DNA of 64,000 nucleotides from a virus. Taxonomy: Duplodnaviria; Caudoviricetes. A model generated the notes under the pieces. The model was not told where the DNA came from and ran no database searches. It saw nothing but the letters and a program-made list of their open reading frames with translations. The stretch lies in the IMG/VR virus record IMGVR_UViG_3300021400_000252. One strand, written 5' to 3'. Each line of letters opens with the position of its first letter. The first letter of the stretch is position 1. The translations under genes and the position numbers were made by a program. Shown piece by piece: positions 22,407 to 58,826 of the stretch.

Positions 22407-22429
22407 TCTAAACTAAAATAAAAAATATA

Positions 22430-23309: not shown

Positions 23310-23317
23310 ATTTTTAT

Positions 23318-23393: not shown

Positions 23394-23413
23394 ATTAGTT
23401 TTGGAGGTTTAAT

Positions 23414-24136: not shown

Positions 24137-24156
24137 ATAAAAATAGGAGAACATAA

Positions 24157-28278: not shown

Positions 28279-28343
28279 TTAGTAATGGATTGGCTGGCTA
28301 ATCTTGGTCATCCAATCCATTATTTTTAAGAAAGGTGTTTAAT

Positions 28344-30185: not shown

Positions 30186-30919
30186 TGGCAACTCAAAAAG
30201 AAGATATGCTATCTGGTATAGCTTTATATGATATTGCACTTTGAAATAAAATTAATAAATATATTCCTCAAACAGGATTAAATACTCAAAAGGTTTACAA
30301 GCCAGATCAAATGGATCAATTTTTAAAGATTATGGCTGATGAAAATAATGATAAAAAGATATTATTTCCATTAATTAAAATTGATAGAGAAAAAGATTTT
30401 GAACTTTTATCAAATATTAAAAATTTAAAAACATTTAACGGTAATAAGATTTATCAAGATAATGACCAAACAATGGTTAGTAATGTTATCCCAATTAAAT
30501 TAAATTATCAAATTAATATTTTTACTGGTTCTTATAATTCAGGATGTGAATGGGTTAGATCTTTATTATTTAAATTAATAAATAATCCAGTTATAGATAT
30601 AACAATTCCATATCAAAAGTCAAATTTAACATACGTCACTAATATTAGAGTTCTTCCAACTATTTCAGATATCAGTGATATGTCTCAAAGACTTTATCCA
30701 GGACAATTTTCTTGTTTTAGTATTAAATTAGAACTTCATGATGCTAATTTATTTAATATTCCTATTAGATCAAACTGGAAAATAGATGGTGCAGAAATTG
30801 GAACTTTTGTTGAATTAAAAGCAATAAAAGATGAAGAAACAGATGAGATAGATATAACAGAAGATGAAGTTGAAGCTCCAGTTAGAAAAAAGCCAACTTT
30901 TTCTATCTTAGAATCATAG
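30185..30919 (+). CDS. Tail terminator/sheath stabiliser, gp15-like (244 aa; TGA=Trp at 30242)
   Basis: TAATG start in frame with ORF 30311; FPLIKIDR, PIKLNYQINIF; precedes sheath. Confidence 0.65.
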
Positions 30920-30945
30920 AAGAATTAAATTAATTTATTAATCAT

Positions 30946-30956
30946 TTGCTAAATTA
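30946..30956 (+). promoter_or_regulatory. Putative late promoter TTGCTAAATTA
   Basis: Repeated motif upstream of sheath-tube operon. Confidence 0.72.
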
Positions 30957-30999
30957 ATTGATTTAGTAATTTGAATAAATATATTATAAGGAGATACAA

Positions 31000-32658
31000 A
31001 TGCCATATCGTAATATATATGAAAAAGATTATACAAGACCTGTATCATCTGCTGCTGGTAGTAACTTTGCAGTTTTAGTTCCAGGTTTTGTTGGTGATGG
31101 AACACCAGATGAGGATACATTCGTTAATGGTGTTGCAGAGTTTGATACTCAAGCCGATTTTATTAAGAAGATTGGTAAAAGAAATGCTTTAGTTGAATAT
31201 ACTCCAGGTGTGAAGGAAAAAGATGCAACCGCACCAGTTATTGCTGATATATCTAAATATGTTCCAGCTGAAGCTGAGCCTACTGATGGTACAACTGATG
31301 AAACTCCAACTGATGAAACTCCAACTGATGAAAAAGCTCCAGAAGATACAATTACAATAACATTCAATAATGGTGAAACCACAGAAGAAATAGTTTTAAT
31401 TAAAAAGGCTTATGCGGAAATATCTGATAGCCTTGAAGGTAAAACATTAGTTCGAGCTACTATTAATGAAAAACAAGCTATAACAACAGTTGGTGAATAT
31501 AAATTAGGAAACTGTGAGTTCACACCAGTTGATCGTGAAGCTGCTGTTGATACTGAAAAGTATATTGTATTAGATTCAATTGGAAATGATCATATTGAAG
31601 CTGTTGATGAAGTAAAAATTTATCATTTTGGTAACCAAATCGCTTATGAATTATTAGGACTTGGATATCACGTTTTATTTAAAGAAATAAAAAGTGTTTC
31701 TGAGTTAAATACTGATGAATTCTACGATGGATTAGAAGACAAATCAGTTTATAATTTCAGATATATTCTTTCAGGATTAAGAACTGATAATACAACTGCT
31801 AATAATAAACTTGCTGCTTTAGCTACATTACGTGGTGATACTATAGCATTATTAGATTTAGATGAGAATTGTTATTTAGATCAAAAAATTCAGTCAAGTC
31901 CACTTGAATTAGCTAAAAGTATGACTAATACAATTAATACCTTAACTTCAGCTAACACCAACTCAACTATATTAGCTCCATCATTAAAGTTATATATGAA
32001 TGATGATCAAGTTTATAACAATAAAACATTACCAATGTCTTTATATTATCTAGCATGTGCTAAGTATGCTTTAGAAAATAATTACAAAGAGTGGTATGCC
32101 GTAGCAGGTTATAGACGTGGTATTTGTAGATATACAATAGATAAACCATTATTAACTGCAGGTGAAACTTTAGTTAATAAATTATCTCCAAGACGTCAAA
32201 CAACTATTGGAACAAATCCAGGTGGTGGACAATGTATCGTATCTAAAGCTTGTAATCTAGTAGCATTAATTAAAGGTAATTATTATATTTGAGGTAACAG
32301 AACTGCTGAAACACTTGGTGATGCTCAATCTGGTGAACTAAGTGCTAAACATTACTTAAATATTAGACAATTGATTACTACTTTAAAACAAGAATTATAT
32401 ACAGTATTAACTTCAAAAACATTTAATCCTAATAGTGATACATTATGGTATTCATTCAAGAGTGCTATAACACCTATACTAGAAACTATGGTAAATACTG
32501 ATGGTATTGCTGATTATGAAATTAGACGTTCAGAGAATACTCAAAAAGGAACAATGAGTGCAGTAATCAGATTAGTTCCAATTGAAGCTGTTGAAGATTT
32601 CGAAATTACTATTTCTCTTGAGAATTCTCTTGAAGAAACTGGTACTATTTTAGAATAA
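31000..32658 (+). CDS. Contractile tail sheath protein (552 aa; TGA=Trp at 32290)
   Basis: RGDTIALLD, WYAVAGYRRG; read-through restores IWGNRT and YLNIRQL; FNPN. Confidence 0.92.
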
Positions 32659-32677
32659 GATAAAGGAGTAAAGAATA

Positions 32678-33304
32678 ATGGCAGATACAAATTATAAACA
32701 CAATTACCCTTCATCTCTATCTGGACATCATATTGCAAATAACCAGTATAGAAATAATGAAGCAGCTCGTACTGGATTTTTCTCTTTAAGAGTTAATGGT
32801 TTAAATGAAATTTATAAATCAACAACTACTTATACTGATCCAAATAAAGCTCCAAAGGCAACTGCTGAAAATGCATGGATGACTGCTGAAGATAACTTAG
32901 AGCTACATGTGGTTAAGTTCTTCGAACCAGACTTTACTATCACACCTTTAAATTACACTCGTGGTAATGAAGTTGTAAAGTTTGCTGGTAAGCCTGAATG
33001 GCAAGGTGGTGACTTAGTTGTAGATGACGTAATTGGAATGCATACTTATGAAATTCTACAAGCTTGGTTATTTAAAGCTTACAACCCATTCACTCAAAAA
33101 GGTGGACGTATGTCAGATTATAAGTTCACAGCTACATTAACACAATATACTCAAGATTACGAAGAAGTAAGAACTTGGACATTATATGGTGTATGGATTA
33201 GTGGATTATCTTCTGAAGGATTTGATAAAGAGAACGATGGTAAGAGACAAGTAACAGCTAAGTTCGAATACGATTGGGCTCTACCTGAAAAATTAGAAAA
33301 TTAA
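32678..33304 (+). CDS. Tail tube protein, gp19-like
   Basis: KFAGKPEW, RTWTLYGVW, FEYDW; follows sheath. Confidence 0.85.
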   Translation: MADTNYKHNYPSSLSGHHIANNQYRNNEAARTGFFSLRVNGLNEIYKSTTTYTDPNKAPKATAENAWMTAEDNLELHVVKFFEPDFTITPLNYTRGNEVVKFAGKPEWQGGDLVVDDVIGMHTYEILQAWLFKAYNPFTQKGGRMSDYKFTATLTQYTQDYEEVRTWTLYGVWISGLSSEGFDKENDGKRQVTAKFEYDWALPEKLEN

Positions 33305-33309
33305 TTTTA

Positions 33310-33338
33310 AAATAGGAGATTAATCTCCTATTTTTTTT
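33310..33338 (+). terminator. Intrinsic terminator
   Basis: AAATAGGAGA-TTAA-TCTCCTATTT plus T-run. Confidence 0.8.
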
Positions 33339-33375
33339 ATTATTATATTTTTATTAAATTTTTATTAAAAATAAT

Positions 33376-33386
33376 TAGCTAAATTA
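33376..33386 (+). promoter_or_regulatory. Putative late promoter TAGCTAAATTA
   Basis: Repeated intergenic motif. Confidence 0.65.
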
Positions 33387-33415
33387 AATGTATAATTAAC
33401 GAATAGGAGCTTAAT

Positions 33416-33577
33416 ATGGGTAGAAATAAACTCGACCGAAGCCAAAAAGTTATACAATCTTTTGAATCAACTAAACCATTAAAACAACGTTTAGAAGATG
33501 AAGCTAGTAAAAGAAATATAACAGTATCGGCGCTAATTAGAGAAATATTAGAAAAGCACTATGAAGAAAGGGATTAA
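33416..33577 (+). CDS. Ribbon-helix-helix (CopG-like) DNA-binding protein, 53 aa (not in ORF track)
   Basis: AGGAG RBS; LKQRLEDEASKRNITVSALIREILEKH. Confidence 0.75.
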   Translation: MGRNKLDRSQKVIQSFESTKPLKQRLEDEASKRNITVSALIREILEKHYEERD

Positions 33578-33579
33578 TT

Positions 33580-34374
33580 ATGGAAAACGAGAAATTAGAA
33601 AACTATGAAGGTCAAAGACTAGAAAATTACACTATTAATGAAGGTTACTATCTTCCTTCACGTGGAAAAATCTATAGCAAGCCAGTTAAACCATTAGTAG
33701 AATTAACTGCAATGAATGGATTTGATGAATTAAGAAGAAAAGGAAATTCAGTAGCTCCATTAAAAGTACTAGCTGACTTAATTGAAAAGTGTATGATTGA
33801 AAAGCCAGCAATTCATGTTTATGATATGAGTTTAGGTGATTATCAATACTTGTTACAAAAATTAAGAGTAATCACCTATGGTTCAGCTTATCTTATGGAT
33901 GTTAGATGTCCTAATTGTGGCAGACATGTTGAAATTGAAACAGACTTAGATGAATTTGAAGCTGAAGAATTAGATTTAGATGAGTTTGAAGAAAAAAGTA
34001 ATATTACGCTTCCAGTATCTGGTGATAAGATTGGATTAAATTTCCAAACTCCACACTTAATTGATGCAATCGATGATAAAGCTAAAGAATTAAAGCGTAA
34101 GATGAAAGAACTAAAAATGGATTTCACATCATTTGCTACATTATTATTAACTATTAATAATGTTAATGGTGAACAATTACCTCTTGGTGATTTAGGTGAA
34201 TATATCAAGAAAATGCATGCTAAGGATTTACGTTTCTTAGAGATTTCTATTGATAAGTTAAACGAAGTAATGGGTGGAATTGTAACAATTACAAAGACTT
34301 GCCCAGAATGTGAGGAAGAACTAGACGTAACCTTTCGCTTCGGACCAGACTTTTTTAGACCCGAAATATTGTAG
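33580..34374 (+). CDS. Tail assembly chaperone / baseplate hub assembly protein (T4 gp26-like)
   Basis: LPSRGKIY, LRVITYG, CPNC and CPEC, terminal DFFRP; between tube and tape measure. Confidence 0.75.
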   Translation: MENEKLENYEGQRLENYTINEGYYLPSRGKIYSKPVKPLVELTAMNGFDELRRKGNSVAPLKVLADLIEKCMIEKPAIHVYDMSLGDYQYLLQKLRVITYGSAYLMDVRCPNCGRHVEIETDLDEFEAEELDLDEFEEKSNITLPVSGDKIGLNFQTPHLIDAIDDKAKELKRKMKELKMDFTSFATLLLTINNVNGEQLPLGDLGEYIKKMHAKDLRFLEISIDKLNEVMGGIVTITKTCPECEEELDVTFRFGPDFFRPEIL

Positions 34375-34594
34375 TGATAATCCAGATGAATTATATGCTC
34401 CAAAACATTTTAAAGATGTAGTGCAAGAAGCATGGTTTATCTGTGACGCACTTCATATTGGATATGAAGATGTAATGAAAATGACTGTAGTTGAAAGACA
34501 TTATTTCATTGAATTTATTAAAGCTAAGAATGAAGCTGTAAATAAAAAGATTGAAGAGTCTAGACAACAAGCTATGCAAAATAGACATAAATAG
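34352..34594 (+). CDS. Probable frameshift extension of tail chaperone (+1 frame)
   Basis: Open frame ...EAWFICDALHIGYEDVMKMTVVERHYFIEFIK... overlapping the upstream stop, no RBS-backed start. Confidence 0.6.
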   Translation, partial: FLDPKYCSDNPDELYAPKHFKDVVQEAWFICDALHIGYEDVMKMTVVERHYFIEFIKAKNEAVNKKIEESRQQAMQNRHK

Positions 34595-34620
34595 AGCATA
34601 TTTACATATATGCTCTTTTT
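34593..34620 (+). terminator. Intrinsic terminator
   Basis: AGAGCATAT...ATATGCTCT plus T-run. Confidence 0.75.
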
Positions 34621-34658
34621 ATTTATTAAATTTTTATTAAATTAATAGAAAGTTTGAT

Positions 34659-34669
34659 TTGCTAAATTA
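34659..34669 (+). promoter_or_regulatory. Putative late promoter TTGCTAAATTA
   Basis: Repeated motif upstream of tape measure. Confidence 0.7.
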
Positions 34670-34698
34670 ACTGATAGTTTAATTGATTGGAGTTCAAG

Positions 34699-37047
34699 AT
34701 GCCTGAAAAGAATTTAACTTCATTAAAACCATTATCTGTTGATAATGATATAAAAGAACAACTTAAACAAATTCATAAACAAATTAAGCAAGTTAGACTT
34801 GAGTCAAAACAATATGTTGAAGACGATTTACTTAAGTCTAAATCTTATTGGGAAGCTCAACTTGACTTCTTAAAGAAATATGAGCTATATAAAAAAGAAG
34901 CACGTGAAAGAGAATATACTGAAGACGTGCGTATACAAGATAAACTATTAGAATTTAGAAAAAGTAATGATGAAAAAGCTCTTAGATCAGAAACAACTGC
35001 TCTTGAACGTTTATATAAACAAAAGAAAATTTGATCAAAAGCTGATTTTGATGACCGAATAGCTGCTATCAATGCTGAATTCGATGAAAAGATTAAAAAG
35101 CTAGAACTTTACGACGGACTCAGTGCAGCAATGATGGAAGAGCGTAAACAGAAAGCCATTGAAGATGCAGAAGAGCAATATAAAAAAGGTCTTGAATTAG
35201 CTAAAAAAGAAATTGAAGAACAAAAGAAACGTGATAAAGAAAAAGAAAAGCGTGAAGAAGATAAGCGTAAAAAACAAAAAGCTAAAGATGCATATCAAGT
35301 ATTAAATCCTTCTTTACGACAAGGTTTATCAAATGGACTAATGTCTCTTTTTAGTAAAGACTTTAGAGAACAAAGAAGAGCCGAAAAAGAGGCTGCTAAA
35401 CAGGATTTAAGAGATGAAGGATACTCAGATAGTGATATTAGAAAAGGACGTATTACTGGTGTTCTTGATTCATTAACACATGCATTAGGTACATTTACTA
35501 AACAATTAGATTCAGCAATTACAACTACAGGTAATTTACAATCACAAATAGATACAAGATTATATGGTTCTAATTTAGAAACTAAAGGTGGTTCTATTTG
35601 GAGAAAAATAAGTTCAGATATAACAAGTGTTGCATCTGTATCACCAATTGTAAAAATGAATGACATTGTTAATAATTTAAAAACAATGGTTGATTCTGGT
35701 ATTGTTTATAATGTTGAACAACGTGCATTCTTAGCTACAATTAAAGATAAAATTGCTACAACATTCGATGCTAATGATGCATCACTAAAGAAATTAATTC
35801 GTATCCAACAACAAGATACTACAGCTGGTAGACTTGGTATGGAAGCTGCATTAAATTCATTCTTAAATAATATGTATCAAACTACAGAATATTTAAAGGA
35901 TTTAGCTACTCAAGTTAGAGGTGATTTATTCGAAGCTGAAGCATTATCTGATGCAAAGACTGGAACTGAACTAGAATATACAGTTCAAAAATGGTTAGGT
36001 TCTATGTATTCAGTTGGTGCTAATAACGTTCAAAATATCTCAAAAGCATTAGGACAAATCTTATCTGGTGATGTAAATGGTATTACTAGTGGTGGAGCTG
36101 GTAATCTATTAATTATGGCTGCCAATAGAGCTGGTGTTTCAGTTTCTGATATGTTATCTAGTGGTTTAAATAGTGATCAAACAAGTAATTTATTAGAAGA
36201 AGTTGTTAATTACTTAGGTGATATTTATGATCAAGCTAAGAATAGTAGAGTTGTTCAACAACAATTAGCTCAATTATATGGTTTAACTGCTTCAGACTTA
36301 AAAGCTATTGCTGGATTAGCTCAAGATCAAAAAGCAAAAAAAGCAATTTCTAACCAATTGAGTTATGATGGAATGGTTAATAACTTAATGAATATGGCAA
36401 ACTCAATCACTAAGAGAATGTCTACTGGTGAAATGATGGATAATGTTTGGGAAAACTTTAAATATTCACTTGGTGCTAGTATTGGAGCAAACCCAGTAAC
36501 ATATGCTATCTATAAAGCTGGTGGATTATTAGATGATGTCGTTGGTGGTATAGCTTTACCGGATATTAAATTTATGGGTACAGGTGTTAACTTACAAACC
36601 ACTGTTGCTGACTTAATGAGAGTTGCTGCATTAAGTGGTGGTGTTATGACTGGTATTGGTAGTATGTTAAGTGGTTTAGGTTCTGGTGGTAATGGAGCTT
36701 CAATGTTAAAGAAGTTAAATATAGGTGCAAACTTAACTACAGTTCAACGTGGTTCTGGTAATTTAGGAATTGGTGAACGTGGTGCTTCAACATCTTCATC
36801 AGGTTATGTTGGTAATGCTAGTGGATCTGATGTAAAGAATAAAGTTATGTCTGATGCTAGTGAAGAGCAAGAAAATACTTTAGCAACTGTTAAAGAGGAA
36901 AATACTGAAGTAACTATTGAAGACGTAAATGAAAATGTAGTATTAATTTATAAATTACTAGAAGATGTTACAACCGGAGCATTAACATTTAAAGTTGAAG
37001 ACCAAGGCTCAACAACTAGTAACTGGATAAGAGATACACTTCATTAG
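34699..37047 (+). CDS. Putative tape measure protein (782 aa; TGA=Trp at 35032)
   Basis: Coiled-coil then A/G/S/L-rich helical sequence; ORFs 34687 and 35131 in frame; gene order. Confidence 0.72.
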
Positions 37048-37061
37048 AATAGGAGATAAAA

Positions 37062-38525
37062 ATGTTTACTTTTGATAATACTCATATTTTTACAGGTTAT
37101 TTAAAACAATATTTATCTTCATTTAACCTTCCAAAATATCGAGTTTACACAGCAGAAAATGAAAAATATCATAGAGAACATATCTCTGAACGTAAAAATG
37201 AAAAAGATATTTTTAAAACAGTATTTAAAAATACAAATAATGAAACATATCACAAAGACACAAAATATATTGAATATATCAAAGATGGATTTATTCAGTA
37301 TTGTGTAGAAGAAAATGGAAGTTATAAGTGGATTAAATATGATAATAGACCATATGTATATAATAGATTAGACTTAAATCATACTAAGAGATTAGTATTA
37401 AGTTCAAATGTTTATGATACATATACTCATGAATACTTAGGAGATTTCTTAAGATTTCAAAGAGATTATAATCATGTAGACTTAATGCCATTATATAATT
37501 GTTTTAATAATAAAATTGTTAATCACTTAAATCTTGAATTTGATAAAACTTATTTTGAAACAGAAAACTTTGTTTCATCAGATGCAATTTCAAATAATCC
37601 AACAGTATATAATGTGTCATTTAAATCTTCTGATACTAACTATAAAATATATATGCTTCCAGTTAAGTTATTTCATGAATATACTATAGCTATAGATAGT
37701 CCAAATGTAATTGAAATGTGTTGTGGATTCTTTGGAGAATATTTAGATGAAAGAGAAAAGTTTAAACCTTTCTCTCAAGCTACTTATGTTAAGTATAAAT
37801 CAATGAATTTTAACCAACCAGTAATATTTGATAAATTATTAAGTGAAAATTTAAGTAAAGAAATTAAACGATTAACTAATAATGGTGATTATATAAATAC
37901 AGAATTAGCATTAATGGAAAAAGATTTAAAATTATTTATAAAAGTTCCACATGATTTAAATTCAACAATCACAATTCTAGAAGGAAATTATATTGGATGG
38001 AATGATTCATTCTATTCAAAGCGTGATAATAAAGATTTTAAATTTATTCAAAATAAATTCGTTACTAATTATCAAAATTATTCCGATGATCAGAAATTTG
38101 TACCAATTACAAGACTACAATTATTGAGTTTAAATACTAAAGTTAGTTATCCATTTGCAGATAAATTGTTAGAATATTTAGCTGGAAATGTAATTACAAA
38201 TTTAGATACTATTGAAGATAATATTAAGAGAGTTGAAACTGTTTTAGCATTAAATGGTAATCCAATCCAAAGAGATTCAGATGGCAATCCATTAGGATTA
38301 TGGACAGATCGTTATAGAAGAACAGTTTATGATAAACTAACAGATGTCACATCAATTGAACACTTAGATCAAAATAAAAATAAATCAAATTTAAGTGAAA
38401 CAAACCTAGAAACATTAGGATTTGTTGATAAAGTTGCTGAGAAAAATTATACCTATTCTTATACTAATGAGGATGGTAAAACAGTCTTAACAAGTATTGC
38501 AGGTGTAGATATTTACTCAGAATAA
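37062..38525 (+). CDS. Hypothetical baseplate-region protein
   Basis: 487-aa ORF, AGGAG RBS. Confidence 0.7.
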   Translation: MFTFDNTHIFTGYLKQYLSSFNLPKYRVYTAENEKYHREHISERKNEKDIFKTVFKNTNNETYHKDTKYIEYIKDGFIQYCVEENGSYKWIKYDNRPYVYNRLDLNHTKRLVLSSNVYDTYTHEYLGDFLRFQRDYNHVDLMPLYNCFNNKIVNHLNLEFDKTYFETENFVSSDAISNNPTVYNVSFKSSDTNYKIYMLPVKLFHEYTIAIDSPNVIEMCCGFFGEYLDEREKFKPFSQATYVKYKSMNFNQPVIFDKLLSENLSKEIKRLTNNGDYINTELALMEKDLKLFIKVPHDLNSTITILEGNYIGWNDSFYSKRDNKDFKFIQNKFVTNYQNYSDDQKFVPITRLQLLSLNTKVSYPFADKLLEYLAGNVITNLDTIEDNIKRVETVLALNGNPIQRDSDGNPLGLWTDRYRRTVYDKLTDVTSIEHLDQNKNKSNLSETNLETLGFVDKVAEKNYTYSYTNEDGKTVLTSIAGVDIYSE

Positions 38526-38541
38526 AGATAGGAGATAAAAT

Positions 38542-39189
38542 ATGGGATATCAACCTTCTTATGAATACTCATCAGAAGTAATCAAAAAATATACCAAAGA
38601 AAATATATACCAAGCTCCTAAAAACTATATTTATATTTCTCACCTAGATGAGGATTATAGATATTGGAGATTACCAAATTGGCCTGATGAGTTCAATGAT
38701 AGTATGCAATCATCTTTTGCTACTACTACAGCTTTAGGTAGATCTGCTCCAGTTTACACTTATTCAAATTCAGGTCCAAGAACTATTAATATTACATTAG
38801 TAATCCACAGAGATGAATTTGATGATGTTAATATGTCTTGGAGTAATTCAAAACTCGGATATGGTGAAGATTATGTTGATAATCTAATTAGAGCATTACA
38901 ATCAATTGCTTTACCGAGATATAATGTAGATAATAAAGCAGTAGAACCACCTTTAGTTGCATTAAAAATTGGTAAATCTTTATTTATTAAAGGTATTGTA
39001 AATGGACCTGTCGGTGTTACACAAGGAAAACCAATTTTAAGAGGTGATTTATATGCAAACCTACAAGTGTCATTTTCAATAACTGAAGTAGATCCATATG
39101 ATGCTACAACAGTATTTACTAATGGTTCTTATAGAGGTGAAATGAATACATTTAGACAAGGTGCTAGAAATATTGGAATAGACGATTAA
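38542..39189 (+). CDS. Tail tube initiator-like baseplate protein
   Basis: LGRSAPVYTYSNSGPRTINITL, PPLVALKIG. Confidence 0.65.
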   Translation: MGYQPSYEYSSEVIKKYTKENIYQAPKNYIYISHLDEDYRYWRLPNWPDEFNDSMQSSFATTTALGRSAPVYTYSNSGPRTINITLVIHRDEFDDVNMSWSNSKLGYGEDYVDNLIRALQSIALPRYNVDNKAVEPPLVALKIGKSLFIKGIVNGPVGVTQGKPILRGDLYANLQVSFSITEVDPYDATTVFTNGSYRGEMNTFRQGARNIGIDD

Positions 39190-39202
39190 TTTGGAGATTT
39201 AT

Positions 39203-39529
39203 ATGGATAGATTAAAAAATAAATCTTATAAAAACTATAATTATACAAATCGATACACTACAGTACCATATTATTATGATACTAAAACTGGAAAATATGT
39301 TTATGGTATAGGAACTTCTATGGATAAATCAATTCCATACTATACTCATAAATTATCTAGTAATGATACATTAGATTACTTAGCTTTAAAATATTATGCA
39401 AATCCAACTTTATGGTGAATTATTGCTTATTTTAATGATATTATAGATCCATTTATTAAATTAACTGACTGTTATACTCAAATCAAAATTCCAAATATGG
39501 CAAGTATTAAATTTGGAGCAGATAGATAA
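39203..39529 (+). CDS. LysM-like baseplate wedge protein, gp53-like (108 aa; TGA=Trp at 39416)
   Basis: DTLDYLALKYYANPTLW-W-IIAYFNDIIDP; stop overlaps next ATG. Confidence 0.82.
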
Positions 39530-40851
39530 TGATAAACACTAAATTAAAATTTTCAGAACAAAGACGTAGTTTATTATCTGATGGTGCTAGAGTTCAAGTA
39601 CCTTGGATAAAAGTTACTATTGGTAAATATACATTTGGAGTATTTTCAAAAACAAAAGCTACAAAAAATGTAGACGGTTTTTATGAAAATTTTAATGTAA
39701 TGTATCCAAATTATATTTCAAGACTAGATATAACAAAAATTAATGGTCAAGTTAATCAATACACATTAACTATTAATTATCCTATTACAGTTAATGATGA
39801 TCCAAATTTCTTTGAAAAAGTCTTTTCGAGTGTAAGTAGTTCACGTAAAATAGTCTTTACTTATGGAGATTGTTCATTACCAACTTATGTTTATAAAGAC
39901 GAAGAAGCAATTATTACAAAAGTTACAACAAATGTATCTCTAGAAAGTTCTAAAATAACTTATGTTGTTAATGCAACTTCAACAGCAACATTAGGTCTAT
40001 CTGGCTCTATTACTAGAATTAGTGATGAAAGACCACATAAACCTAGTGATATAATTAAAGGATTATTTAGAGATAAAACAACAGGACTTCAAGATTTATT
40101 TAAAGGTATGAGCGTTGATAACTTAGATAAATTAATAGATAGTTCAGACCAAGCAGTTGTCTTACACTCTAAAGTAAATATTTCAGTATTAGATTATATT
40201 TCATATTTAGTAAGTTGTATGATTCCAGATGGCTCTGTTGTTGGAGATAGAAGTAATGCTATATACATATTAACTATTCATGATGAAACATTATATGATA
40301 GAGCTTATGAATCTTTAGGAACAGCTAATGATTTATTAAATGTAGGTCCTTATTTTAAAGTTACTAGAACAACACACTTAGGAAATCATTCAGACGCGTA
40401 TAATATTGATGTTGGATATAATACTTCAACTATTGTTTCTAACTTTTCATTACAAGATAATGAGAATTATGCATTATTCTATGATTATCAAGCTGAATTA
40501 AATCAAAATAATTATGTTAGAAGAATTAATTCAGATGGAGTATGAGAAGATGTGTATGCTCCAAGTTTAGCTTCAAAAAATGAGCATTTTGAAGTTAGAA
40601 CTGAAGATAGAACATGGTGGACAAAGATAACAAAATATCCTGTAAAAGCTTCTATAACCATTCAAGGATTATTACGTCCAGCAGTATTAATGTCTTATGT
40701 AAGATTAAATGTAATCTTTCCTGGTGGACATAAACATATTTCGTCTGGATTATATATTATAACAAGTCAAACAGATTCAATTAGTGAAAGTGGTTATAAA
40801 ACAACATTATCTTTAACTAAGATAGATGGTGATGATGATATTAAAATTTAA
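39529..40851 (+). CDS. Baseplate hub protein (440 aa; TGA=Trp at 40543)
   Basis: C-terminal ASITIQG...SGLYIITS...GYKTTLSL hub pattern joined through TGA. Confidence 0.72.
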
Positions 40852-40946
40852 CGTTTAGGAACGTTTTATTTAATTAATGATTAATTTAATTACTTAATAA
40901 ATAAACGCTATCCTGGTGACGATTTCTATTGAAAGGAACGATAATT

Positions 40947-41831
40947 ATGTTAACTCAAGCTGAAATTAAACAAGTAATAACTCGTAATAATCTAAGTGGA
41001 TCCTCTGAAGAAACAGGTGTATACTTAGTCCATATTCCATTATTCGATACAGTAACAAAAATTAATACACTTGTTTATGCTCATGCATTATACAATGATG
41101 CAGGATATGGTTCATATGAAGTCGGTGATTTAGTGTGGGTTGGTTTTGAAAAGAATGAAGCCGGTAAGCCAGTAATTCTTGGAAGGATGTATCAAGGAAG
41201 AGAGTTAGCCACACTTAAAAATAAATATAAATCTCAAGTTACTGGTAAGGATTTAGATATTAAAGAAAAAGCATCATTACCTTATGATACTTTATTTAAA
41301 GATAAAACATTTGCAAGTCTTAATACTGATGTAATTAATTTAAATGAAAAAGTTGAAAAACTGCTTCCATTAGTTGAACTTCAAAATGCTGATACAATGG
41401 ATACTGAACAAAGATACATTCGAACTAAGAATATTAAGTATAGTGCTGAAAAAACGTTTTATAATAATGTTAAATCAACTCAAGCAGAAGTTTATACATA
41501 TAACTTACTTATTCCATCTCAACAAGTATTTACTAGAATGAGCGTAGCTGCTTTATCGAGTTATTCGCCTAATTATAAATTACCAAATGGTGATTTAATC
41601 ATTCATAATATTAATGCTTACTGTTTACTTACAGAAAGTAATCAATCAAGACATTTAAATATTAGTCCATATATTTATATTCAAACTGTTGGATATGGTA
41701 AATCTAAAACTAATGATATATTTTTTGATACTATAAGATTTTGTGAAGACTTTGATATTAGTTCTCAATTTAGTATTACTTTAGATTACTTATCTTTAAA
41801 TATTGAATATTCAAACATTACAAAGAAATAA
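40947..41831 (+). CDS. Baseplate spike OB-fold protein (gp5/GpV-like)
   Basis: VGDLVWVGFE...PVILG. Confidence 0.7.
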   Translation: MLTQAEIKQVITRNNLSGSSEETGVYLVHIPLFDTVTKINTLVYAHALYNDAGYGSYEVGDLVWVGFEKNEAGKPVILGRMYQGRELATLKNKYKSQVTGKDLDIKEKASLPYDTLFKDKTFASLNTDVINLNEKVEKLLPLVELQNADTMDTEQRYIRTKNIKYSAEKTFYNNVKSTQAEVYTYNLLIPSQQVFTRMSVAALSSYSPNYKLPNGDLIIHNINAYCLLTESNQSRHLNISPYIYIQTVGYGKSKTNDIFFDTIRFCEDFDISSQFSITLDYLSLNIEYSNITKK

Positions 41832-41883
41832 TATAAAAAAAATAAAGTTATTAAATATTTAATAACTTTATTTTTACTTTTAA

Positions 41884-41894
41884 TTGCTAAATTA
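41884..41894 (+). promoter_or_regulatory. Putative late promoter TTGCTAAATTA
   Basis: Repeated motif, after hairpin terminator 41838-41875. Confidence 0.7.
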
Positions 41895-41921
41895 TATAGT
41901 TAGTTGTAAAGGAGATTAAAA

Positions 41922-42305
41922 ATGCGTTCAATTAAATTTCCAAATATGTTTAATACGAATAGTACTAATGTATGAAAGTCTTCTGAGTATAAAGAAGCAA
42001 CCGCACAAAACACAGAATTAGTTCTATTAAGTGAACGTCGTTCTTTAATCGGTGACCCATTCTGGGGTGGATTAATCGATTCATTAACTTTTGAACAAAA
42101 CTCTCAAATGACATCTGAAATTTTGGCTGATGTAATTTATGAACAAGTTTCAATTTTTATACCTCAGTTAAAAATTAGACGTGAAGATATAGTTATAAGA
42201 CGTGAATCAGGAAAAATATATGCAGATATTCATGGAATAAATCAAATAGATTATCAAAATGATCTTTACACTTTAATACTTTCAAATAATTCATTAAACG
42301 AGTAA
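41922..42305 (+). CDS. Baseplate wedge/sheath initiator, gp25-like (127 aa; TGA=Trp at 41973)
   Basis: AAGGAG RBS at ATG 41922; LLSERRSLIGDPFWG...FE. Confidence 0.78.
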
Positions 42306-42320
42306 ACAGGAGAATGAAAT

Positions 42321-45300
42321 ATGATAAATAATAAAGATATCGCTGCAATTGAATTATCACCAACTGCTAAAGATTATTATCAAATATGGAACGAATTACT
42401 AGAGACTGCAAAAAAGCTTTCTGCTAGATGGGATCCAACAACAACAAATGAATCAGATCCTGGTATCGTTTTATTAAAAGTTATTACAGCTATTGTAGAT
42501 AGACTAAATTTCCAAAATGATATTACAGCTCTTGAAGTTTTTATGCCATCTGCATCTGAATTTGAAAGTATGCAAAAATTATGTAATATGATGGGATATA
42601 ATATTAAATATTATCAATCAGCAACAACTGATGTTACGTTATATTATAGTGGACAAAAAGAATGGACAGAGTCTTCTTATTTAATTCCAATGTTTACTGC
42701 TTTTACAAATGCAGATAAAAGTATAAATTATTTTACAACTGAACCAAAATATTTAACAAAGAATTCATACGGAGTTCTATTACCTTGTATTGAAGGACAA
42801 ATAGAACAATGTGAATCAGATAATGATAATATTATTTCTATTTATCAATTAGATGATAATCATAGATATTATTTCTCTGAAACTCAAGTTGCTCAAAATG
42901 GTATCTTTGTTTTCAATATTAATGATGGAAATAAGAGTGAAAGATGGACTGAAGTAGATAATTTAAATTCTCAACAAGCAAAGAGTAAAGTATATAAATT
43001 TGGATTTGATTCTAGATTAGCAAAACCATTCATCGAATTCCCTGAAGATATTAGTTCAATAATTGAAGACGGTCTAGAAATTTATTATACTAGAACATCT
43101 GGTATTAGTGGAAATATTAGTGCTCGTGAATTAAGTGCTTTCGTAACAGTACCTTCAACATTAAGCGATGGACTTGATGGTGATTCAGCAAACTATACTA
43201 TTGTTAATGCTTCATCATCAACTAATGGAGCTAATATTGAATCAATTCCTGAAGCTTATACTAATTATAAAAAGACAATAGGTACTTTTGATACATTAAT
43301 TAATTGTAGAGATTATATGAATAAAATCTATCAATTAAAAGATGATGCAAATATTGATTTAGTTTCAAATTGTTTAGTTTCAGATATTAATAATGATATT
43401 AACCACTCTATTAAATTATGTACATATAATGATTATGGAATTTATTATAAGAACGTTCAAACTTCTGATGATTCTCCTATTGATAACTTTACATTAACAT
43501 TATATCCATTTAAGAGAGTAAATAATTTAAATACTAAATCTGAGTACTTAAATTCATTTAAATTGGATAGAAGTGTTTTAACAGATATTGAAACTAAGCT
43601 TGAAAATCTTAAGACATTAGTTCATAAATTTAGATTACCTTCTGAAGAATACGGTGACAATAAAGAACCAGAAATTGTTGCAATTAAGAATTACTTACAA
43701 TTAAAGGCTATCATTACTACTACTGAAAGAGTAAATAAAGCCGAGCAAAGCGTAATTCTAGCAAACATTAAGACTGCAATTTATGAAAACTTTAATTTAC
43801 GTAAATTAGATTTTAGTGAACAAATTCCATATGAAAGCATACTAGAAGTAATCACTAATGCAGATAAAAGAATTAAGAATGTTAACTTAGACGAACCAAC
43901 ATTATTAACAAAATTTTTATTAGCAAATAATAATGAATATAGTGTTGCTAGTACTTATTCTATAGATCAATCAAATAAAAAATTTAATAACTTAAGTGGT
44001 GAAGAACAATTAAGTAGAAAGATATATAATAAACTTGCACTTAGAAATATCTTAGCTGGAAAGCTTGAGTTATTTAATTATAATACTGAATTTAAATCAT
44101 CATTCACTGAAGCTAAATATCCAGACACTACTACTATTAGTGTTGTAACACCAAAGGCAGGAGATTTAGAAAGATATGGTGTTGTAAAAATTAATACAGC
44201 AACTCAATATGATTTAAATAGTACTGGAGATAAAAAATTAACTAATGGTGAAATAATTCAATTTAGATCTAAAAATCTAAGAACAACAATTACATATCCA
44301 GCATATGTAAATTATTATTTATCATTAAAAAATACTTCAGGATTGGATAATTCAGCAAAACCTGCATCATTTATCACTTTATATGATTGTTTAATGTATT
44401 TAGGTAAATCATCAAGTACTCCATTATCATTTAGTACAAGTCAGAGTTCATTTACTTTTACACCTACTTCTATCTCAAATGAAGTTGAATTTAATGCTTA
44501 CGATGGTAGAGAAATCTTATTTGTACAATCTACAACAGATAGTACTAAATATAACACAGGAAATGGTTGAGTAAATGACCAACGTCAAAGATTCGTAAGT
44601 GACACTACATATTATACTTTAAATGTAAAAGCTGCAGATAATTTCTACGCATTAGTTTCTTATATTAAAAAGAAAATTCTTGTTAACTCAATTTATTATG
44701 ACGGAATTTATAAATGTTTAGGTGCAAGCAAGAATTATATTCCAGGATACTTAATTGATCAAAATCAATATAAATATACTAGATTACTTTTTGCTCCAGT
44801 TAATGGTAGCTGGACTAGTTACTTTGTTCAAGATCCAACTAATGGATATGCTAAAGCAGAAAATAATTATAGCTTAGGTAAGGATGCTGTTCTAGAAGGT
44901 CTTGCAAAGAATGGTGAATATCAATTAAAAGATGGAGAATTCTTATTAATTAATTACACTAATTCAGAAACAGAAACTGACGGTACATCACAAAAAGAAA
45001 CCATAATAAATAAATATTATGGAAAAGGAACTATAATTAGACCTAATTTTAAAATGGTTGATTCAATTCAAAAGTTCAATGCTGGTAGTTCTTATACTAA
45101 AACAGATATAGATTTTAAAACTGCATTCGACGAAGCTAACGTTCAATTAACAAATACTGTTTATTCATTATTTACATTAGGTTCTGATGAACAAATTGAG
45201 ATAAGAGAATTTGCTGATATTTATTTAGATTCAAACACAGTGTACTTATATTGGAATTTAAATAATAGTTCAAATGTATTAAGACTTAAGTTTGAATCAA

Positions 45301-47159
45301 AGAAAACTGTTGGTGGTTATAATGTATATACTCACACTTATACTCTAAGTGAGAATGAATATATTTATTATTCAGATCAAAATCAATTAGACATGGCATA
45401 TTATGGAAATGGTACAAAGATTTCTATGAAACAATATGTCTCAGTTTCAACTTCTGTTGATGAATCAGAATTACGAGCTGATAGAACATTCTATATTAAA
45501 GATAAGACTGTAAATAATGAAACAATTTTAACTGAAGGATTAAGAAGTATTCCTTGGCAAAAATTTAACTTTGATTCACACTCTATTGATTCAAATAAAA
45601 CATTCATGGTTTTAACTGAATATAATTATATAAATTTAATCGAAGGTGATTATATTGTTAACTTAGAATTAGATACTGAAGATTCAGATGAGTCTGATGG
45701 CTCAGCATTAGCGAGTGAACAAAAAATTGGTAATGACTGAGTTAAAATTAAGCAAAACAGTCTAGTTAGTTATTATTCAGACGGTGTTTACAAAGAATTA
45801 CCAAAATTAGATTTTGAAGATAAAGAAAATTACTGGGAAGTCTCTTGTAAATTAGTTTTAAACTGTGGACCGGATTTAGATCAAACATTAGTAAATACTA
45901 ATGATACAATTACTTTACATTTATTAAGTAAGACTATAATTAATGATATTATTAATAGTTATAATGAGACTGGTGCGGATATTAAAGGAAGTATTGATAG
46001 CAAGATTGCAGAATATACTCAATCACCAGACCAATCAAATTATAAACCAATAGAATTAAAGAAAACTAATAATCAATATCCATTAAACTTAAAATCTAAT
46101 TATGAATTAAGAAATGCATATGGTGATATTTATACTTTAATTCAGACTACAGATTCTGATACTGGTGAAGATACATTTATTTATGACTTTAAAGTTAAAT
46201 CAACTAGTATAAATAATCTTACAACTGCTTTAAATACATCATTAAATCAATCATTACATAACGTAAGTGATAATTTAACAAGATTTTCATTCAATGAAAT
46301 CTTCAACTCAAGATTAGTTACTCAAAATCTTGATTATAAACCAAATGATGATAATGTTAATCTAAGTTTATTACTTCCAATTGAAAATGCTGGTGCAGGT
46401 ACAACTCAAACAAATTGGCAATATGGAATAGTGATGATTTATTATATTAAAAATCAAACTACTAAGACAAATGTTCAAGATGTTGCAATAACACTTTCAA
46501 CCGCTACATCTGCACCAACACCAAAGATATTTGGAAACTTTGTTAAAGATCCAGAAGATAATCTATCAAATGTAGATCCATCTAAATTTGGTTGGTGGAA
46601 CCAAGACAGTGATAGTTTAAGTGCTGATACATATTATAGTTATAATAGTGGTACTTATTATAAATTAAAACCAGGAATAAACATTTTATATATTCCATCA
46701 TCAGTTACATTAAAGATTTATCCAGATGTTTATTCTGACGATGGTGGTACTACATATAAATTAAAATGTGAAGATTCGATCATCATATCTGATTTAAGTT
46801 TAGTTAATGCAACTAGAGATAATATCTTCGGAATTAATTTAGATTTAGTTCATTATTATATTACAACTAAAGCTTCACCAAGTGATAATGAAGTTAGTGA
46901 TATTGGAAAGCAATTAATTCTTGATATTAGTAAGATAGATAAAGATAATGAATTCTTCTACAATTCTCCTATTAACAATAATAATGCAATTGATATTAAC
47001 ACAAAAGCATTAGATGTTAATGGAGATAATGAGAGTTTACAAAGTCCAAATATTTGGTACAGCAGAAACAATGTAAATAATCCATATGTAATTTCTGAAA
47101 TCGATATAAAGTCAGTTGATAGTAATATTCAAATAGCTAGATCTTCAATGAAGAATTAA
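42321..47159 (+). CDS. Large baseplate wedge protein, gp6/J-like (1612 aa; TGA=Trp at 44568, 45738)
   Basis: WDPTTTNESDPGIVLL, MMGY, GANIES...RDY; three track ORFs share one frame broken only by TGA. Confidence 0.85.
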
Positions 47160-47169
47160 GGAGACATTT

Positions 47170-47868
47170 ATGATAAAGATTCAAGATGAAACTCCAAGCA
47201 TTTATTATAACAAATCTCGAGACTTCCAATTTATTGGTAGATTATTCGAGATTATGTTAAATTATTCAAAAACAAATACAGATCTATTATATAGTTTACC
47301 TTCTAAAAATACTGACTTTGCAGATTTATTAGCTCTAACACTTGGAATCAACTTAAAACATGATTATAATACAGATCAGTTAATGGCTATTTGTAGTATA
47401 TTTCCAACAATTCTAAAAAATAAAGGAACATTTAATGCATTAAAGTTAGTCGGTGATACTATTCTTCATGCAGAAGGTATCACTGATAACTTCGATTATC
47501 AATTTGATTCAGATAATTACACATTAACAATCTTCATTCCTATAGAATTAACAGATTTAAGTTTATTTAATGATTTATTAGAATATATTTTACCGGCTGG
47601 TGTTTGTTATAATATTGTAAAAACAACAAGAGTAAAAGAAGTGATAACTCAAAAATTTGATTTAAACGAAAAAATGACTATCACAAAATTAGACCTTGAA
47701 AGAACAGCTAAATTAAGAAAAGAGTATGATAGTAAACATACTCAAATAGGTGCTCAACCTGGATATTTAATTAATACAGGAATTATTAGACCTACAAGTA
47801 CCTTAGATAAACCTAAGGAAACAACCACAGATAATATTGTTTATCAAGATGACAAGTTATCTGAATAA
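47170..47868 (+). CDS. Baseplate/tail protein I-like
   Basis: LLALTLG, KNKGT, EYILPAG. Confidence 0.68.
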   Translation: MIKIQDETPSIYYNKSRDFQFIGRLFEIMLNYSKTNTDLLYSLPSKNTDFADLLALTLGINLKHDYNTDQLMAICSIFPTILKNKGTFNALKLVGDTILHAEGITDNFDYQFDSDNYTLTIFIPIELTDLSLFNDLLEYILPAGVCYNIVKTTRVKEVITQKFDLNEKMTITKLDLERTAKLRKEYDSKHTQIGAQPGYLINTGIIRPTSTLDKPKETTTDNIVYQDDKLSE

Positions 47869-47890
47869 TATATAGAAAGTTGAGTGTAAT

Positions 47891-48478
47891 ATGACTGATA
47901 CTTATTTAGACTCATTACAATACACTGGAACAATTATTGTTAAAGAATTTAAAGGTAAAGAGTTAATAAAAATAAATAAATTTCATAATCAAGGTTGTGA
48001 TCCGTTATTTAGATTCTTTGCAAAGTGTCTTGGAGGAGATTTTGCTTCTGCAAAATTATTAAAACCAACTAAGATAAAATTATTTGATGTTATTAATAAA
48101 AATTCCGATTCGCCTGCTGGATTTGATTTTAGTACTACATCAATGAGAAATGTATCTACTGATTTTATTTATTTAGATACAAATGTATTTGTACAAGAAG
48201 ATAAAGCTACCTTTAGATTTTCAATTCCATATTCATATCTAATTGGTAGCTTCCTATCTGTTATTGGATTATATGCTGATTCAGAAACAAATGATAAAGC
48301 ACCTTGTGCTTATTATCTACTAACAAAAGAAGTTGTACAGAATTATAATAAGATATTAGAATGGGATCCAGTAGATATTCGAGATAAAAACCATAACTTT
48401 AGTTTATTAGTTGAATGAACAATGCAAGTAAGTAATCCAGAAAAAATTAAAGAGAATAATGTTGTTAGTAGTAATTAA
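47891..48478 (+). CDS. Tail-fibre attachment-like protein (195 aa; TGA=Trp at 48416)
   Basis: IGLYA...; read-through gives LLVEWTMQV and ends TAA beside next RBS. Confidence 0.62.
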
Positions 48479-48489
48479 GGAGAAAAAAC

Positions 48490-50874
48490 ATGGCTATAAA
48501 TTATTTTAAAAGTGATAATGTAGAAGTTTATCCTTCAGCATATAGAGGAACATATAAAAAAGATAATGAATTATATACTTATAATGTTGAAAGTTCAATT
48601 TATACAGAAGTAAATCATACATTATTCTCACATATTAATAAAGATACTTACATTATTACTGATCCAGATAAAGTCTCAAAAAATAATCCACTTGAAGTAT
48701 TGATTCATGGATATTATTTTAAAATACTTAATCCAAGTGAGCTTTTTGATACAACAGGTAAATTCAATATTAGTTATTTAGGTATTAGAACTAAGTTAGT
48801 TCCTATTGGTACAGATCAAAATAGTACAATTTTATGTGCATTTACTAATGATACTAATGTTGATAGTACTGGAACATTAGATGTAGCAAATGGTGATTTT
48901 GTCGGACTAGCTTATTCAAAAGATGTTAAACCTGTAGAAGGCCAATCATCTGAATATAAATACTATTTCTTAGACTTTACTACTAATGACAAAAATGAAT
49001 TATACGGTAAAATCAAAAATGTTGATTTAGAAGACGATATTATAACTACAGAAAAAATAGTTGATCAAAGTGTTACTACAGACAAATTACATGATGGTGA
49101 TATCACAACTGAAAAAGTTAAAGATGAAGCTATTACTCATGAAAAAATAGCTGATAATGCTATTGAAAATAATAATATTAAAAATAATACTATTGAAAAT
49201 GTAAAGCTTCTTAATAAAACTATTGAAGGTAATAAGATTAAAGACAGTACTATCGGTACAAGTCATATTATTGATAAAGCAGTTACTTCTAAGAAAATTG
49301 CTGAAAGTAATGTATTAACTGAGCATATCAAAGACGATAATATTACTTTTGATAAACTTGGACCTGGAGCTATTAAATATGATCCAGATAAACGTATTAT
49401 AGCTGATGATGCAATTAGAGCAAGTAATATTGCTGCTAATAGTATTATTGAAGAGAAAATTCAAAACTCAGCAGTAACAACTAAGAAAGTAAATGATAAA
49501 GCAATTACAACAGAAAAAATCGCAGATAAAGCGGTTACAAACGATAAGATTGCTCAAAGTGCAGTAAAGACTGATAATTTAGATTCTAATGCGATTATTT
49601 ATGGTGCTAAATATATTGTAAATGCTAGTGGAAATGGAAATAGATATACTCGTAGCGATAAATTATTATTTATTGACAATGGTGAAATTAAAGAAAGTAA
49701 CGTTAACATTGGTTCTGTAAATAACCCAGTATATTTAGATAATGGTATATTTAAGTCAGTTAATAGAACTGGTTCTTATTCTAAACCAATTGTTGGAATA
49801 AATGATTTAAACTATGCTTTTGTTAATGATGGTATTCAATTTAATAGTTATGCAAAAATTTATCTTTCAGGAAATAAATTATATGTAAATAGATCATTAG
49901 ATTTATCAAATAATAATATTGAAAATATTAAAAAGATTAATGTAGGTGAACTTAATGCAAATACGTTTACAGCTCAAACATTTAAAGTAAGTGGTTCTAT
50001 TATTTGTTATGGTAGTCCAAGTATTAAACTTGCAGGTGGACAAAACATTGTTTTCCAAGATGTACCAAGTGAGCATACTGGAACTAAATTATTTATTAAG
50101 ACAAATAATAATGGAATAAAACTATCTGCAGAACATTATGCTTATAATCCTAGTTCATGTTCTAGTACAAAAGATACAGAAAATTATTTATGGTTAACAA
50201 AAGATTATACTCAGTTAAATAAAAAATTATGTGGTACTGGAAGTCTTATTCTAACAAACTCTAGTTCTGAATCTTCTCGAATAACACTAAATAGTTCAGA
50301 TATTAGTATTAAAACTGATACTATAGTTTTGAATAATGATACTAAGATTTCAAATGGTAGAGTTCGATTCATTAAAACTCCTTACTTTAACAAAGGTATA
50401 TATTCTGATACTTTTGACCTAACATATTCTTGATGGTCAAATCTTTGAAAATATAGTGATTATTATTATAATAGTTCTCTATTACAGGATATAGTTGCAA
50501 ACACAATACATGATCGTGGATATACATCCAGTACATTAATATTAATAGAAGGAGTTGTTTACTTTAACTTAAGTTATCATGATAGTGATCAACTTCGAAG
50601 AAGAATCGGTATACCATTTGCAATAAGTGCTTACTATTATAGTAATGGAAATTATGTTGATAAACTTCCTGATTCTTATGATCAGAGTTATGTTGCTGTT
50701 GCAAATCTAGATTATTTATTAGGATGGGATAAAGATAATGGAGGTATTTATCTAGAAATCGAAAATAGAGAATTTAGACTTAGAGGATTTAAAGGACAAG
50801 GAAGCAATAACGAAGTATTTCAATATATCGATAAGCCTGGAATCATTATTTCTAGAATTAGTACATTACATTAA
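48490..50874 (+). CDS. Tail fibre / receptor-binding protein (794 aa; TGA=Trp at 50431, 50446)
   Basis: Decapeptide (A/S)(I/V)TTxKIxD repeats; frame stays open for 147 codons from the first TGA. Confidence 0.75.
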
Positions 50875-54002: not shown

Positions 54003-54054
54003 TTGCTAAATTTTTAACATAGGCTTTGTATTATTACATTGTCTATGTTCTCTT

Positions 54055-54150
54055 AGGGGCTTGGTGTAACGGCAGCACAGCGGTCTTCAAAACCGTAAAA
54101 GGCCGAGTCCAAACCGGCCGGTGCGGGTTCGAATCCTGCAGCCCCTGCCA
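54055..54150 (+). tRNA. tRNA-Trp(TCA), UGA-decoding, long extra arm
   Basis: AGGGGCT/AGCCCCT-G-CCA acceptor, GCGGT-CT TCA AA-ACCGT anticodon arm, GGTTCGAATCC T arm. Confidence 0.92.
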
Positions 54151-58752: not shown

Positions 58753-58826
58753 AGGTGCGTCGTTCAATGGTAGGACTGTGGTCTCCAAAACCGCGTATGA
58801 GGGTTCGAATCCTTCCGTGCCTGCCA
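58753..58826 (+). tRNA. tRNA-Trp(CCA)
   Basis: A1-U72, G73, loop CT CCA AA. Confidence 0.93.

Follow-up and report, generated by a model that had tools for sequence, protein, structure and literature searches.

The window, that is, the whole stretch of 64,000 nucleotides of phage DNA analysed here, encodes an opal-suppressor tRNA of the Trp type, and the variable region of this tRNA holds an additional hairpin whose loop resembles the anticodon loop of tRNA-Trp(CCA). The tRNA belongs to a phage that has reassigned TGA to Trp, and the hairpin is probably a natural pseudo-anticodon, which keeps the tRNA recognizable to the TrpRS of the host. An opal Trp suppressor is in itself of a known kind; what is new is the combination of a conserved pseudo-anticodon arm, its Gln-type counterpart in amber suppressors and a case of TAG read as Trp. 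Borges et al. (bioRxiv 10.1101/2021.08.26.457843) leave it as an open question how the synthetase of a host with the standard code comes to charge a tRNA that reads a stop codon, and they assume that the host TrpRS is 'intrinsically susceptible'. If the proposal is true, the conserved arm answers the charging question for a large share of the recoded phages, and it is the first natural case found of an identity element for an anticodon-binding synthetase that has been moved off the anticodon.

Reassigned TGA codons and the suppressor tRNA

All genes of the window, whose G+C content is 29%, are on the + strand. When the standard code is applied, many open reading frames of the 9.7-51 kb region terminate at TGA, with gaps after them; with TGA taken as a sense codon (code 4), the frames of this block fuse into tightly packed genes. 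According to PHROG annotation, the genes containing TGA encode terminase (13552-15678, four TGA codons), portal, protease, sheath and fibre proteins. The recoding is sparse: 21 in-frame TGA codons stand against 124 TGG codons, and most of the affected virion genes have a single one. No in-frame TGA was found outside the block (helicase, SIS protein and genes of the tRNA region), and the stop codons in the window are all TAA or TAG, with TGA used in no case. The meaning of the codon was examined in the terminase by placing X at its four TGA sites and aligning 120 full-length homologues. One site corresponds to W in 120/120 homologues and the other three to W/Y, W/F/Y and L/W/I, and the aromatic substitutions agree with Trp. 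Judging from this alignment, UGA is read in the window phage as Trp, not as Ser, Sec, Cys or Gly.

The first-pass annotation described a 96-nt tRNA with Trp identity and the anticodon TCA, and this description is confirmed by the sequence, by ARAGORN, by alignment to tRNA-Trp(CCA) and by the W sites of the terminase (Table 1). ARAGORN finds 17 tRNAs in the window and labels this one 'SeC', because of the anticodon only; its score against Rfam RF00005, 56.3 bits, is that of an ordinary tRNA. As read from the sequence, the acceptor stem consists of 7 bp (AGGGGCU, 54055-61, with AGCCCCU, 54140-46) beginning with A1-U72, and is followed by G73 (54147) and by the encoded CCA end (54148-50). The D arm has a 4-bp stem and a 7-nt loop with GG, the anticodon arm is GCGGU-CUUCAAA-ACCGU, and the T arm is GCGGG-UUCGAAU-CCUGC with a 5-bp stem. 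The suppressor can be aligned along its full length with the ordinary tRNA-Trp(CCA) of the window, save for an insert of 22 nt in the variable region. The acceptor-stem pairs and G73 are Trp identity elements of both E. coli and B. subtilis (review PMC9976931), and G73, A1-U72 and G2-C71 through G5-C68 of the bacterial tRNA-Trp identity set are all present in the suppressor. The remaining element, C34 C35 A36, is absent from the decoding anticodon, which is U34 C35 A36; the full CCA occurs solely in the loop of the extra arm. By these features the tRNA appears to be a UGA reader with Trp identity.

Because the single-sequence minimum free energy fold of the suppressor gives no cloverleaf (z = -1.58), support for its structure rests on covariation: over 20 relatives the cloverleaf is 95.9% paired, versus 38-49% when the partners are slid, and all five helices covary. 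An alternative fold in which the CCA arm does the decoding was rejected, as it would put the UCA arm at position 26 and leave 3 nt for the variable loop; that the phage already owns a tRNA-Trp(CCA) also disfavours it. An exact 38-mer of the suppressor has no match in IMG/VR, and no close phage was found in INPHARED, where the best match to the tRNA is the tRNA-Trp of Acinetobacter phage Ac42, with 79% identity.

The suppressor has the anticodon UCA, G73 and a long variable arm in common with bacterial tRNA-Sec (selC), some members of which even have a UCCAAAA loop. The long arm and G73 are features of Ser and Sec tRNAs, and together with the ARAGORN label they would favour a tRNA charged with Sec or Ser and a UGA codon meaning one of these amino acids. 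Such a reading has virtually no probability and was rejected. tRNA-Sec has an 8/5 fold, a 6-bp D stem with a 4-nt loop, charging by SerRS, and SelA, SelB and SECIS, none of which fits the window tRNA; the bacterial tRNA-Sec fold is excluded by the 7/5 fold and the normal D arm of the suppressor, and its first pair is A1-U72. The TGA sites align with W, F or Y and never with C, U or S, near-identical homologues insert Trp, and the true prophage-end tRNA-Sec genes recovered in the scans described below look different. Both the W alignment and the mass spectrometry data published for homologues thus exclude charging with Ser or Sec, which had been named at the outset as the alternative to Trp.

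Table 1. Positions in the window of the suppressor tRNA, its parts and the related features
Feature	Position	Strand	Basis
Virion-gene block predicted to need the suppressor; 17 genes with 21 in-frame TGA	9764..50874	+	Code 4 ORF fusion, PHROG annotation, codon counts, TGA-W alignment
Promoter-like motif TTGCTAAATTT, with extended -10-like TGnTAAATT; 41 nt 5′ of the tRNA	54003..54013	+	Recurrence at intergenic sites
Hairpin of 9+4 bp in the 5′ leader; 5 nt separate its end from the RNase P site	54016..54049	+	Fold
Trp-type opal-suppressor tRNA, 96 nt, anticodon UCA, CCA end encoded	54055..54150	+	ARAGORN, Rfam, alignment to tRNA-Trp(CCA), covariation
Decoding anticodon UCA in loop CUUCAAA; closing stem 54080-84/54092-96	54087..54089	+	Sequence; ARAGORN (anticodon at position 33)
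Variable region, 26 nt: AAAA linker, hairpin, GGU (equivalents of G46, G47, U48)	54097..54122	+	Sequence; layout common to 42 distinct relatives
Putative pseudo-anticodon arm: stem GGCCG/CGGCC, loop A-GUCCAAA-C, CCA at 54109-54111	54101..54119	+	Compensatory changes, near-invariant loop
Ordinary tRNA-Trp(CCA), anticodon loop CUCCAAA, which the extra arm copies	58753..58826	+	ARAGORN, alignment

The extra arm and its relatives

The variable region reads AAAA-GGCCG-AGUCCAAAC-CGGCC-GGU, and the hairpin with a TCCAAA loop that the first-pass annotation placed here is exact in both coordinates and pairing. An A.C mismatch closes the loop in the window and makes it 9 nt long. The insertion point of the hairpin lies between positions 45 and 46 and leaves the core contacts of A15-U48 and G46 intact; the hairpin is flanked by single-stranded linkers, AAAA on the 5′ side and GG ahead of U48 on the 3′ side. 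Its dimensions are those of an anticodon arm, namely 5 bp here and 4-7 bp in the family, with a loop of 7 or 9 nt. No similarity to either anticodon stem was found in its stem, and the likeness is confined to the loop.

Relatives were collected by two scans of IMG/VR whose pattern fixed the UCA anticodon loop and the T loop and nothing else, leaving 24-48 free bases between them; the first scan yielded 23 loci and the second 111 stretches. After removal of chance matches and of true prophage-end tRNA-Sec genes, 42 distinct viral Trp-type tRNAs were left. All of these have G73, and their first pair is A1-U72 in 34 and G1.U72 in 6 (together 40/42). The extra stem, of 4-7 bp, occurs in 34 different sequences among the 42 tRNAs, and the UCCAA loop is found in 40 of them, most commonly as CUCCAAA, the exact anticodon loop of tRNA-Trp, or as GUCCAAA. 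When 20 window-like relatives are aligned, 5/6 pairs of the extra helix show compensatory changes (one pair, for example, is GC in 6, AU in 5, CG in 5 and UA in 2), and the loop UCCAAA is near-invariant. TCCAA occurs in the variable region of none of the 121 distinct long-arm tRNAs for Ser, Leu or Tyr from the same loci, and the linkers of the family (3-6 nt at the 5′ side) are longer than those of Ser, Leu or Tyr tRNAs. The positions equivalent to U33 and A37 are conserved as well, which suggests that the extra loop must fold like a genuine anticodon loop. A loop conserved in homologues, as the first-pass annotation required, is therefore found over stems that covary, and by these patterns the arm is under selection across a wide family of phage tRNAs. 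The terminase of the window has no match in six phages carrying the family, indicating that this type of tRNA crosses phage lineages.

The origin of the arm bears on how its conservation is to be read. Its loop is the tRNA-Trp anticodon loop, and in many relatives, as well as in the locus L227 described below, the suppressor has a tRNA-Trp(CCA) gene as its neighbour, in keeping with descent from tRNA-Trp. The arm could accordingly be a neutral relic of a duplicated or displaced tRNA-Trp anticodon arm without any present function, but this is very improbable, since a relic is expected to decay, yet the 34 stems stay paired through compensatory changes while UCCAA persists, and amber suppressors have come to the same arrangement with loops of the Gln type.

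Several further observations were made. In genome contigs of Caulobacteraceae, Phenylobacterium and other Alphaproteobacteria, and of a small number of other phyla, genuine tRNA-Sec genes with the 8/5 fold (L199-L212 and L215-L226) carry a UCCAAAA loop on the variable arm, and because true tRNA-Sec arms show this sequence as well, the UCCAA motif alone is not diagnostic. In two related phage contigs, a short tRNA(CUA) lies in the same array as a long-arm tRNA(UCA) (L016:138-214 and L018:3898-3974), so that both amber and opal suppressors are present there. A tmRNA is located within the tRNA array of several relatives (L011, L012, L020 and L021).

Proposed recognition by TrpRS and the amber counterparts

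The identity elements of bacterial TrpRS include C34, C35 and A36 together with G73 and A1-U72, and exchange of C34 for U, by which the tRNA comes to read UGA, would weaken recognition by the enzyme. In the proposed mechanism, the CCA loop is restored on a flexibly linked side arm, outside decoding, where the anticodon-binding domain of TrpRS could read it and so compensate for U34 or, in a tRNA with the anticodon CUA, for U35. The unmodified host TrpRS would then charge the tRNA efficiently without a phage synthetase, and the identity of the amino acid would be uncoupled from the codon that is read. Since the variable region exits the tRNA core atop the anticodon stem, the extra arm could be positioned alongside the decoding one. 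TyrRS and TrpRS, the class Ic synthetases, approach a tRNA from the side of its variable loop and bind it across their dimer, which makes a contact between TrpRS and the arm plausible.

No synthetase of the PF00579 family was detected in five near-complete relatives with a long-arm UCA tRNA, and the control genomes all scored. One of these five (G002) also has long ORFs that contain TGA. An own TrpRS was found in 1/5 phages with a short-arm UCA tRNA versus 0/5 with a long-arm one, a comparison of only five genomes each and too small to weigh. Evidence on charging itself comes from Seki et al. (bioRxiv 10.1101/2025.10.30.685624), who assayed 213 suppressor tRNAs from phages in an E. coli extract to which no synthetase was added. 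The arm-bearing tRNA-UCA gave signals of 26.7k-58.9k versus 5.4k with no tRNA, and mass spectrometry revealed insertion of Trp by all 13 tRNA-UCA examined (bioRxiv 10.1101/2025.10.30.685624). The positive control of that study, tRNA-UCA-3, is identical in sequence to the tRNA of L010. In their table, all 13 arm-bearing tRNA-UCA are strongly active at UGA versus 2/18 of the others (Fisher test, 5e-7), although relatedness, and doubtful tRNA predictions in the second group, confound the comparison. The short-arm tRNAs UCA-12 and UCA-18 in the same table also work in E. coli extract, and the arm is therefore not strictly required for E. coli TrpRS. Excision of the arm, which had been raised as a way in which the reading could fail, is unlikely, as homologues are active in the extract in the form of unspliced transcripts.

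The same scan was repeated with a CUA anticodon loop, and long-arm amber suppressors were recovered. Their variable arms form small hairpins with YUCUGA or YUUUGA, which resemble the anticodon loops of tRNA-Gln(CUG/UUG). Among distinct tRNAs confirmed by ARAGORN, TCCA occurs in the variable region of 38 of the 52 in the UCA set versus 2 of the 42 in the CUA set, and TYTGA in none of the former versus 32 of the latter (Fisher test, 3e-12 for TCCA and 1e-16 for TYTGA; the counts are not phylogenetically independent). Both classes contain several sublineages which differ in their D arms and acceptor stems. Gln-type hairpins on large viral contigs are located, for example, at L128:8342-8395, L123:1240-1287, L129:7995-8042 and L143:435-482, and the Gln-type arm loops seen are CUCUGAC, CUCUGAA, CUUUGAA and UUUUGAU.

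One amber suppressor combines the anticodon CUA with the Trp-type arm. In IMGVR_UViG_3300028805_000058 (146 kb; L227/G006), a tRNA with the body of tRNA-Trp, the anticodon CUA and the arm GUGUCCAAAGC is encoded at L227:7800-7892, directly 3′ of a tRNA-Trp(CCA) gene. The genome is recoded at TAG, as ORF coverage is 0.82 with TAG as sense versus 0.60 under the standard code, and this tRNA is its only suppressor. In the endolysin (L229:11863-13176), three TAG sites correspond to W in 118/120, 120/120 and 112/120 homologues and a fourth to W in 74 and F in 42; the fifth is situated in a variable linker. From these alignments, TAG is read as Trp in this phage. No report of a TAG=Trp code was found for phages; such a code is known from the plastids of Balanophora (table 32). 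In E. coli, the amber derivative of tRNA-Trp accepts Gln (review PMC9976931), and tRNA-CUA-44, which is nearly identical to the G006 tRNA, is an active UAG suppressor in the screen of Seki et al. (bioRxiv 10.1101/2025.10.30.685624). The phage with TAG=Trp does not isolate the contribution of the arm, because the acceptor-stem identity elements travel with it.

The suggestion of the first-pass annotation that the extra CCA loop aids recognition by TrpRS is favoured over the alternatives by the conserved loop over covarying stems and by the Gln-type loops of the amber suppressors, and gains a further basis from the phage in which a CUA tRNA with a CCA arm reads TAG as Trp and from the relatives without their own TrpRS. 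More generally, relocation of the cognate sense anticodon loop to the variable arm seems, on balance, to be a device used by phages to fix the identity of suppressors (UGA=Trp, UAG=Gln and UAG=Trp) with unmodified host synthetases. How a side arm would reach GlnRS is less obvious than for TrpRS.

Two other roles for the arm have to be considered. First, it may serve a partner other than TrpRS, such as a modification enzyme, a host anticodon nuclease for tRNA-Trp or tRNA-Gln against which it acts as a decoy or shield, a T-box leader of host trpS or trp genes, or EF-Tu or the ribosome, tuned in competition with RF2. Selection on the loop shows that a reader exists, not which one; in E. coli extract, UCA tRNAs with a short arm can become charged too, and the RNA-repair-type genes (YqeY-like and HAD_SAK_2) in the tRNA array of the window hint at an arms race over tRNAs. 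Even so, a partner of this kind is unlikely, since the type of loop tracks the amino acid inserted rather than the codon, with CCA accompanying Trp in both UCA and CUA tRNAs and CUG/UUG accompanying Gln, as is predicted of an identity element. Furthermore, a nuclease decoy or a T-box ligand needs no position in cis on the suppressor, and the phage also carries an ordinary tRNA-Trp(CCA). Second, the arm may act mainly as an anti-determinant against other synthetases (for example GlnRS, or SerRS, LeuRS and TyrRS) or against quality control linked to RF2, rather than attracting TrpRS. Changes of the anticodon do cause mischarging, as in the E. coli tRNA-Trp amber suppressor that accepts Gln (PMC9976931), but a base-for-base copy of the cognate loop, including the equivalents of U33 and A37, is unneeded for this purpose, and a long arm combined with G73 would increase the risk of recognition by SerRS; an anti-determinant is hence improbable as the main role.

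Recognition of the side-arm loop by the host TrpRS, if true, has practical consequences. The arm explains why tRNA finders call such tRNAs 'SeC', 'Pyl' or 'undetermined', and its loop predicts the amino acid assigned to the reassigned stop codon. Arm-bearing tRNAs are a ready natural chassis for expansion of the genetic code, so far attempted only by design (Mukai 2020), and the idea can be tested directly, as homologous tRNAs are already contained in a cell-free screening library.

Known systems, upstream signals and neighbouring genes

The window phage resembles the recoded gut phages of Borges et al. (bioRxiv 10.1101/2021.08.26.457843) and those bearing tRNA-UCA-3, -6 and -10 of Seki et al. 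in being a large phage of low G+C content with TGA in structural genes. Its tRNA is close in sequence to members of the Seki library that suppress UGA with Trp, and the close homologues UCA-3 and UCA-6 are active in the Seki table. The extra arm is not mentioned by Seki et al., Borges et al. or Yutin et al., and no published description of a natural pseudo-anticodon arm was found in a literature search that covered sources other than subscription journals.

The nearest precedent in principle is synthetic. In the allo-tRNAs of Mukai 2020 (PMC7590224), a copy of an anticodon arm in the variable arm recruits a synthetase domain while another anticodon decodes, and such an engineered pseudo-anticodon can raise charging by a synthetase with the matching binding domain. 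That system employs HisRS fused to an extra anticodon-binding domain and has a modest effect, whereas the window arm is natural and presumably meets an unmodified host enzyme; no natural tRNA example is cited there (PMC7590224). The thrS operator of E. coli and the tRNA-like structures of plant viruses (PMC9976931) likewise present an anticodon-like hairpin, which the cognate synthetase recognizes by the rules that govern tRNA identity. These mimics reside in mRNAs or at the ends of viral genomes and regulate translation or tag the RNA, whereas the mimic of the window is a second arm inside a decoding tRNA.

Class II tRNAs (Ser, Leu and Tyr) have an arm at the same site (positions 45/46), and there the arm itself is an identity element; the window arm probably serves recognition by a synthetase, too. 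In tRNA-Ser the size and orientation of the arm count and the loop sequence does not, whereas in the CCA-arm family the loop sequence is conserved. The tRNA-Trp(UCA) of Mollicutes and mitochondria (code 4) is a Trp tRNA in which U34 reads UGA, as is the case here. Their variable loop is of the usual short kind, and their synthetases have co-evolved with them. Unlike them, the window phage must use the synthetase of a standard-code host.

Upstream of the suppressor, the first-pass annotation had noted a late-promoter-like sequence and a leader hairpin. The hairpin does fold, with -14.8 kcal/mol for the leader (54003-54054). As for the promoter, the sequence TTGCTAAATT at 54003 is real, and a direct search for TGCTAAATT showed about 12 copies of it, all intergenic and on the + strand. 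The common motif T-TGCTAAATTA(NNTGA) is found at 1231, 7758, 11849, 18324, 18906, 23319, 23384, 30946, 34659, 41884, 54003 and 61008 (+), mostly before virion genes that contain TGA, and also before the suppressor tRNA and a small-RNA region. A generic scan for the sigma-70 consensus around the tRNA found sites no more numerous than in shuffled sequence. What stands of the earlier claim is thus an extended -10-like motif common to the tRNA and many virion genes, which suggests that the tRNA may be expressed together with the recoded virion genes; an excess of generic sigma-70 sites does not accompany it. Neither the motif at 54003 nor the leader hairpin is conserved upstream of homologous tRNAs in relatives, and both signals therefore belong to the window phage and not to the tRNA family.

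The gene that follows the suppressor tRNA (54172-54804) encodes a DUF5662 protein. A full-length ROOL RNA (Rfam RF03087, 246.9 bits) is located at 55078-55695 (+), between the suppressor and the main tRNA array. The array itself contains, at 57948-58493 and 59154-59660 (+), genes for a YqeY-like protein (PF09424) and for an HAD domain of the 'Swiss Army Knife' RNA-repair proteins (PF18143, HAD_SAK_2); the PF09424 domain is related to the tRNA-binding tail of GatB.
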